Part shown: in pieces, positions 62,501 to 62,621 of the stretch
Position numbering within the stretch: the first letter of the stretch is position 1
How the letters are laid out: every line of letters begins with the position of its first letter
Notes under the pieces: model-generated
What the model was told of the DNA's origin: nothing
Seen by the model: the letters and a program-made list of their open reading frames with translations, nothing else
Databases searched by the model: none
Assembly (NCBI RefSeq): GCF_000027125.1
Contig: NC_017626.1
DNA: 64,000 bases
Strand: one strand, 5' to 3'
Source of the DNA: Escherichia coli 042
Lineage (GTDB): Bacteria > Pseudomonadota > Gammaproteobacteria > Enterobacterales > Enterobacteriaceae
Program-made: the position numbers and the translations under genes

Positions 62501-62544
62501 GAATTTCTCCGCGTTTTTTCGCATTCATCTCGCTAACTTCGCTT

Positions 62545-62573
62545 ATTATGGGGATCAGTTTCAGGGTTTCAAG
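62545..62573 (-). promoter_or_regulatory. Sigma-32 heat-shock promoter of grpE
   Basis: Minus strand CTTGAAA, 13-nt spacer, CCCCATAAT. Confidence 0.8.
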
Positions 62574-62621
62574 GGAAGCACTCACATTGTCATCAATCTT
62601 CGCAACAAGGACCTCGGAAAA

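Follow-up and report, generated by a model that had tools for sequence, protein, structure and literature searches.

The question raised by this locus is whether a gene with no recognisable promoter of its own is influenced by the heat-shock promoter beside it. NAD kinase is essential and sets the NADP(H) pool, and its gene, nadK, shares about 120 bp with one of the most strongly heat-induced promoters of the cell, that of grpE. If polymerase competition or supercoiling changes nadK expression in heat shock, proteostasis stress would be linked to redox cofactor supply; such a coupling, if true, would extend the heat-shock response modestly. For grpE itself, the heat-shock promoter is textbook knowledge and its confirmation adds nothing new, but together with the clpB promoter it provides a clean positive control for the reading of motifs in the window, by which we mean the whole stretch of 64,000 nucleotides of Escherichia coli 042 that was analysed. 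Among the papers searched, none links nadK/yfjB in E. coli with grpE, rpoH, sigma-32 or heat shock, and the sources searched yielded neither a transcription start of nadK nor a heat-shock expression value for it.

The window ends in the grpE-nadK-recN region of E. coli (Table 1). The identity of both proteins was established with NCBIfam equivalogs, GrpE with NF007655 (432.7 bits vs a cut-off of 348) and NAD(+) kinase with NF002893 (567 bits vs 386), and in a comparison of a 1.9-kb stretch the order yfjD/grpE/nadK/recN, annotated as such, was found in 5,425 of 5,426 complete E. coli genomes. The divergent grpE-nadK spacer (62501-62621) has a length of 121 bp; that of K-12 MG1655 has 122 bp, owing to one additional base in the T-run of the grpE leader, and is otherwise identical. 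Of 5,425 E. coli genomes, 5,110 match the whole 161-bp region around it at an identity of 99% or more. On its other side grpE, ending at 61907, converges with yfjD, which ends at 61852, and the hairpin that this pair flanks is likely to be the grpE terminator and possibly serves both genes.

Table 1. Features of the grpE-nadK region and pattern matches near clpB (positions in the window; two dots mark minus-strand intervals read 5' to 3')
Feature	Position	Strand	Remarks
grpE CDS	61907-62500	-	197 aa; ORF starts MSSKEQ at 62500; start codon 62500..62498
nadK CDS	62622-63500	+	292 aa; ATG at 62622
GC-rich hairpin, 12-pair stem	61858-61885		T-tract follows on minus strand; between convergent yfjD and grpE
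sigma-32 -35 element CTTGAAA	62573..62567	-	exact, 7/7 consensus match
Extended -35 form TTCCCTTGAA	62577..62568	-	also readable as sigma-70 -35 TTGAAA
sigma-32 -10 element CCCCATAAT	62553..62545	-	exact match
sigma-70 -10 hexamer CATAAT	62550..62545	-	embedded in sigma-32 -10
grpE transcription start, A	62538	-	inferred, by conversion of RegulonDB TSS via K-12 alignment (NC_000913.3 2750747)
grpE 5' leader	62501-62537	-	38 nt from start at 62538
grpE Shine-Dalgarno GGAG	62510..62507	-	in leader
T-run (A-run in grpE leader)	62514-62519	+	T6 in window
Candidate nadK -10 TATTAT (mirrored)	62544-62549	+	opposite grpE -10; followed by GGGG; predicted start near 62556
Candidate nadK -35 TTCAGG	62560-62565	+	inside spacer of sigma-32 promoter
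Candidate nadK -10 CACATT	62583-62588	+	predicted start near 62595; putative function
Conserved block C-A-n-A-T-T-G-T-C	62583-62591	+	includes CAnATT
nadK Shine-Dalgarno AAGGA	62607-62611	+	conserved columns; 10 nt before ATG
clpB sigma-32-like site CTTGAATAATTGAGGGATGACCTCATTTAAT	46143..46113	-	CTTGAAT-N13-CCTCATTTA; 12/14, runner-up in window
Pattern match CTTGTCAGGCCGGAATAACTCCCTATAAT	43389..43361	-	adjoins clpB; only other hit at three or fewer mismatches

On the minus strand the spacer carries CTTGAAACCCTGAAACTGATCCCCATAAT (62573..62545), which agrees with the pattern CTTGAAA-N13-CCCCATAAT of the initial annotation at 0 mismatches; about 3e-5 exact matches to these 16 specified bases are expected by chance in 128 kb. 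Its -10 region, CCCCATAA(T) at 62553..62545, agrees with the consensus CCCCATnT at six of seven specified positions, and the gap from CTTGAA to CCCCAT is 14 nt. A scan of the whole window on both strands for CTTGAAA, a gap of 12-15 and CCCCATnT, with 30 shuffles as the control, placed the grpE site at the top of all sigma-32-like sites, at 13 of 14 consensus positions, a level reached by a mean of 0.07 sites in the shuffles. The runner-up in the scan matches what we take to be the sigma-32 heat-shock promoter of clpB, with CTTGAATAATTGAGGGATGACCTCATTTA (46143..46115) preceding the clpB ATG (46075) by about 40 nt, and therefore the scan detects real sigma-32 promoters. This site has the same architecture as that of grpE and likewise precedes a chaperone gene, but it is weaker (12/14) and does not lie in a short divergent spacer. 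Loose matches to the pattern are not sigma-32-specific, since the hit at 43389..43361, with 3 mismatches, has what is presumably the sequence of a sigma-70-dependent rrn P1 promoter, and was rejected as a heat-shock promoter for this reason. Another 12/14 site, TTGGAAAGGGTTGATTAACGATCCCCATATG (52742..52712, minus strand), lies inside the aroF CDS and is probably due to chance.

For comparison with catalogued promoters, K-12 coordinates were carried from U00096.2 to NC_000913.3 with an assumed offset of +1978 bp between the two versions, which agrees with the position of grpE at 2750115-2750708 in NC_000913.3. RegulonDB places grpEp on the reverse strand with a TSS at 2748769 (U00096.2), on evidence coded HIPP, IDA and TIM, among it a direct assay and transcription-initiation mapping (S2 Table of PMC5493296, where the RpoH-dependent promoters of RegulonDB are listed). 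The locus is the same, and the spacers of K-12 and the window are identical from the -35 element to the start, which after conversion falls 7 nt beyond the -10 element, with the last T of CCCCATAAT at -7. The two differ in the T-run, T7 in K-12 and T6 in the window, and because of this one T the leader has 38 nt in the window and 39 nt in K-12. The motif is therefore the known grpE heat-shock promoter, mapped decades ago. ChIP-chip regions for sigma-32 (SigH_273), sigma-70 (SigD_1109) and sigma-38 (SigS_607) all span the spacer, with SigH_273 extending over 2748133-2749219 (U00096.2), that is, at kilobase resolution. According to a published account, sigma-32 targets polymerase to the promoter of grpE; the account also describes a conserved site 47 bp upstream of grpE in Sodalis. 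The binding sites recovered by in vitro genomic SELEX with the RpoH holoenzyme do not include grpE; SELEX recovered only 20 of the 322 catalogued RpoH promoters and hence its negative at this spacer weighs little. We encountered no evidence that contradicts the assignment to grpE. The proposal that a sigma-32 promoter for grpE lies within the 121-bp divergent spacer is thus upheld by the exact motif, the catalogued grpEp and sigma-32 occupancy in vivo. The best explanation as a whole, that the motif is the RpoH-dependent grpEp and that a nadK promoter overlaps it, is very probably correct. On this basis sigma-32 RNA polymerase would recognise CTTGAAA as the -35 and CCCCATAAT as the -10 element and initiate at the A at 62538, giving a 38-nt leader followed by grpE, and grpE transcription would be expected to increase as sigma-32 accumulates upon heat or protein-folding stress.

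The closest likeness of the site to a structurally described promoter is to dnaK P1, the scaffold of the cryo-EM structure of the sigma-32 open complex (PMC10216364, which also states the -35 consensus CTTGAA(A)). The two agree exactly in geometry, with CTTGAA at -35 to -30, a 14-nt gap and a 9-mer that ends at -7 (CCCCATTTA at -15 to -7 in the scaffold), and both start at A; the -10 element of dnaK P1, however, ends in TTA and that of grpE in AAT. As a consequence of the AAT tail, the grpE site also contains the sigma-70 hexamer CATAAT and, mirrored on the plus strand, TATTAT. Read as a sigma-70 promoter, TTGAAA-16-CATAAT matches the consensus at 10 of 12 positions and has a score of 11.0 in a simple weight matrix based on approximations of the classical frequencies; a score of at least 10 occurs at just 9 positions when one strand of the 64 kb is scanned. 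Together with the sigma-70 ChIP-chip region, this could be taken to mean that the site is chiefly a sigma-70 promoter whose sigma-32 likeness is secondary. We regard that as very improbable: sigma-70 has no need of the CCCC that precedes the -10 or of the C ahead of TTGAA, and yet these are invariant across families and so show selection on sigma-32 recognition, the site is catalogued as sigma-32-dependent and has a sigma-32 ChIP region over it, and the spacer is missing from the RpoD SELEX list. It is likely that both sigma factors use the site, given its strong sigma-70 match and the sigma-70 ChIP signal, and not likely that sigma-70 alone does so; as a sigma-70 promoter, the same DNA probably provides basal grpE expression. 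A second sigma-70 or sigma-E promoter for grpE further upstream was considered and rejected, as no acceptable hexamer pairs were found.

Conservation was examined in 80 loci from Enterobacteriaceae and Erwiniaceae with NadK 87-100% identical, which contain 78 distinct spacers. In all 80 grpE and nadK are divergent, with spacers of 118-142 bp (most commonly 122 bp). The -10 element TTATTATGGGGAT and the extended -35 element TTCAAGGGAA are invariant or nearly so, columns 62568-62573 of the -35 being identical in 78/78 distinct spacers, and the sequence between the two elements varies freely. As a neutral yardstick we used 133 four-fold degenerate nadK sites, which have a mean identity to the window of 40% and not one of which is invariant. 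Beyond these two families, Budvicia, Edwardsiella, Hafnia, Pectobacterium and Chimaeribacter retain the gene order and both promoter elements (5/5 loci), which brings the divergent arrangement to 85/85 Enterobacterales loci; TCAAG is invariant in eight Enterobacterales genera, and TTATTATGGGGAT is invariant or nearly so in every family sampled. At greater distance, with NadK 49-56% identical, three of four loci are divergent. In one of the three, dnaK adjoins grpE and the spacer contains CTTGAATCAATTCAGAATGCCCCCAT, and CTTGAA-N14-CCCCAT still precedes grpE in a locus with NadK only 55% identical; another of the three, from a 335-kb reduced genome, has a 92-bp AT-rich spacer without the sigma-32 motif. 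Where NadK identity is 45% or less the linkage of grpE and nadK is lost. The short divergent spacer thus persists throughout Enterobacterales and in relatives as distant as about 50% NadK identity.

The position of the nadK promoter is constrained by this arrangement. If the polymerase footprint at grpEp is taken as about -55 to +20 (62593..62518), 13 bp remain between it and the nadK Shine-Dalgarno sequence, which is too short for a separate promoter, and therefore the nadK promoter either overlaps grpEp or sits inside grpE. The initial annotation had held that the nadK promoter must share the spacer in overlapping or back-to-back form; this stands as geometry, but no plus-strand promoter above background accompanies it. 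Specifically, a plus-strand sigma-70 scan of 62300-62640 gave best scores of 5.2, 4.3, 4.1 and 3.4, all of which are background in a window where scores of at least 4 occur about 13 times per kb. We infer that transcription of nadK begins at a weak sigma-70 promoter in physical overlap with grpEp; the -10 of this nadK promoter would most likely be the conserved CAnATT (62583-62588) or else the mirrored TATTAT (62544-62549). Both candidates overlap grpEp, and therefore the two promoters could not be occupied simultaneously.

The preference for CAnATT comes from comparison between species. The block at 62583-62591, in which the columns read C 73, A 75, variable, A 76, T 76, T 78, G 77, T 67 and C 74 (counts out of 78), is the only conserved block of the spacer without an explanation by grpE signals. 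TTCAGG-17-CACATT has a background score of 4.1 in the window and a cross-species median of 4.0, and at the position of CACATT Hafnia and Edwardsiella have CATAAT, Chimaeribacter has CACAAT and Budvicia has CATATT. In place of the -35 TTCAGG, Budvicia and eight Pantoea-group loci have TTGACG, with scores of 8.6-9.3 in the Pantoea group. Directly downstream of the block, insertions of 8-21 bp are tolerated, as expected if this region were the nadK leader. The block may nevertheless have nothing to do with a nadK -10 and be instead an upstream element of grpEp, at -45 to -53, or the site of a regulator. In 77 of 78 spacers it stands at a constant distance from the grpE -35, and conservation extends to the G, T and C that follow the hexamer, both of which would suit such a role. 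The block is not A/T-rich as an UP element would be, however, and its variable third position with A2 and T6 invariant fits a -10 hexamer, as do the CATAAT and CACAAT of other families and the downstream insertions; on balance, we consider a role outside nadK transcription unlikely. TTGTCA (62587-62592) was tried as a nadK -35 and rejected, as the corresponding -10 would hit the Shine-Dalgarno region (GACCTC) and the insertions fall downstream of it.

One possibility for the mirrored hexamer is transcription of nadK from a bidirectional promoter of the Warman type, in which TATTAT would share the grpE -10 and sigma-70 would initiate near 62556. In bidirectional promoters with a shared symmetric -10, the hexamers of the two strands are displaced by one base, which predicts a distance of 18 bp between the starts (10.1101/2020.01.31.928960; PMC12825309). 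Here, hexamer positions 2 and 6 base-pair (TATTAT at 62544-62549 on the plus strand with CATAAT at 62550..62545 on the minus strand), the predicted nadK start lies 18 bp from the grpE start as described for such promoters, and TATTAT agrees with the consensus at five of six positions and is followed by GGGG. Warman-type cases differ in that sigma-70 acts in both directions and both starts, 7-25 bp apart, have been observed, whereas at grpE/nadK one direction uses sigma-32 and the divergent start is predicted. In the window the -35 is poor and the spacer is 19 bp (TCGCAT-19-TATTAT, background score 3.4; cross-species median 4.7), although several lineages have a better -35, for example TTGGCA-19-TATTAT with a score of 10.5. 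The conservation of TATTAT is uninformative, its bases being also those of the sigma-32 -10, and the CAnATTGTC block would be left without explanation. This origin of nadK transcription is accordingly rather unlikely in our judgement. Distinctly improbable is a nadK promoter within the grpE CDS, from which the nadK transcript would cross the start and the promoter of grpE in antisense orientation. It is there that the two highest plus-strand scores of 62300-62640 fall, TTGCCC-18-TTTACT (start near 62501; 5.2) and TCAATA-17-GATAAT (start near 62459; 4.3), but both are background and TTTACT is without the A at -11. Such a promoter would moreover entail a leader of 120-160 nt and a head-on conflict with a strong promoter, and the block at 62583-62591 would again be left without explanation.

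Taking the weak overlapping promoter with CAnATT as our preferred reading for nadK, it can be asked whether heat shock would alter nadK expression through the shared region, either by occlusion through sigma-32 polymerase or by stimulation through the supercoiling that accompanies divergent transcription. The physical overlap is unavoidable, and the divergent pair has been kept in the 80/80 and 5/5 Enterobacterales loci and in 3/4 of the loci with NadK 49-56% identical. Conserved gene order alone, however, is no proof of co-regulation and is explained equally well by inherited order, and we hold an effect of heat shock on nadK by either route to be doubtful. The fully specified form, in which the nadK -35 lies within the sigma-32 spacer, its -10 CAnATT lies upstream of the sigma-32 -35 and the loading of sigma-32 polymerase in heat shock alters NAD kinase expression, in an arrangement conserved throughout Enterobacterales and more loosely in other Gammaproteobacteria, is quite unlikely.

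The grpE leader is also strongly conserved. Its block GCATTCATCTCGCT (62521-62534) is nearly invariant in the 78 spacers, as are the first four grpE codons with their synonymous positions included, so that the conserved stretch spans 62489-62534. The T-run is the sole spot of variable length in an otherwise fixed leader, with T6 in the window, T7 in K-12, T8 in another E. coli strain and T3-T8 across Enterobacterales. A small and weak hairpin is predicted here, in which AUGAAU pairs with AUUCAU on either side of a GCG/CGC stem and the start codon would be masked. An RNA thermometer was nevertheless rejected: the stability of the hairpin is no better than that of shuffles (MFE -5.0 to -6.5 kcal/mol; z -0.25 to +0.18), the alignment contains one compensatory change vs many pair-breaking changes, and an Rfam search of the region gave no family matches.

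Finally, the grpE-nadK-recN stretch (61800-63700) has a best match of no more than 98.8% among the 5,426 complete E. coli genomes, in contrast to the clpB stretch (43200-46300), which has matches of 100%, and the differences between the window and K-12 are concentrated in nadK (62750-63250) and recN. Judged from these sequence comparisons, this end of the window may have had a mosaic or recombinant history. Upstream of recN, on the plus strand, there is a promoter-like TTTACT-16-TATACT (63516-63543), overlapped by a LexA-type box, CTGT-N8-ACAG (63542-63557), with a near-copy of the box, CTGTATATAAAACCAG, at 63511-63526. By its motifs, 63511-63557 looks like an SOS-controlled recN promoter. RpoD SELEX, with no site listed in the grpE/nadK spacer, does list a constitutive promoter in the spacer between nadK and recN.
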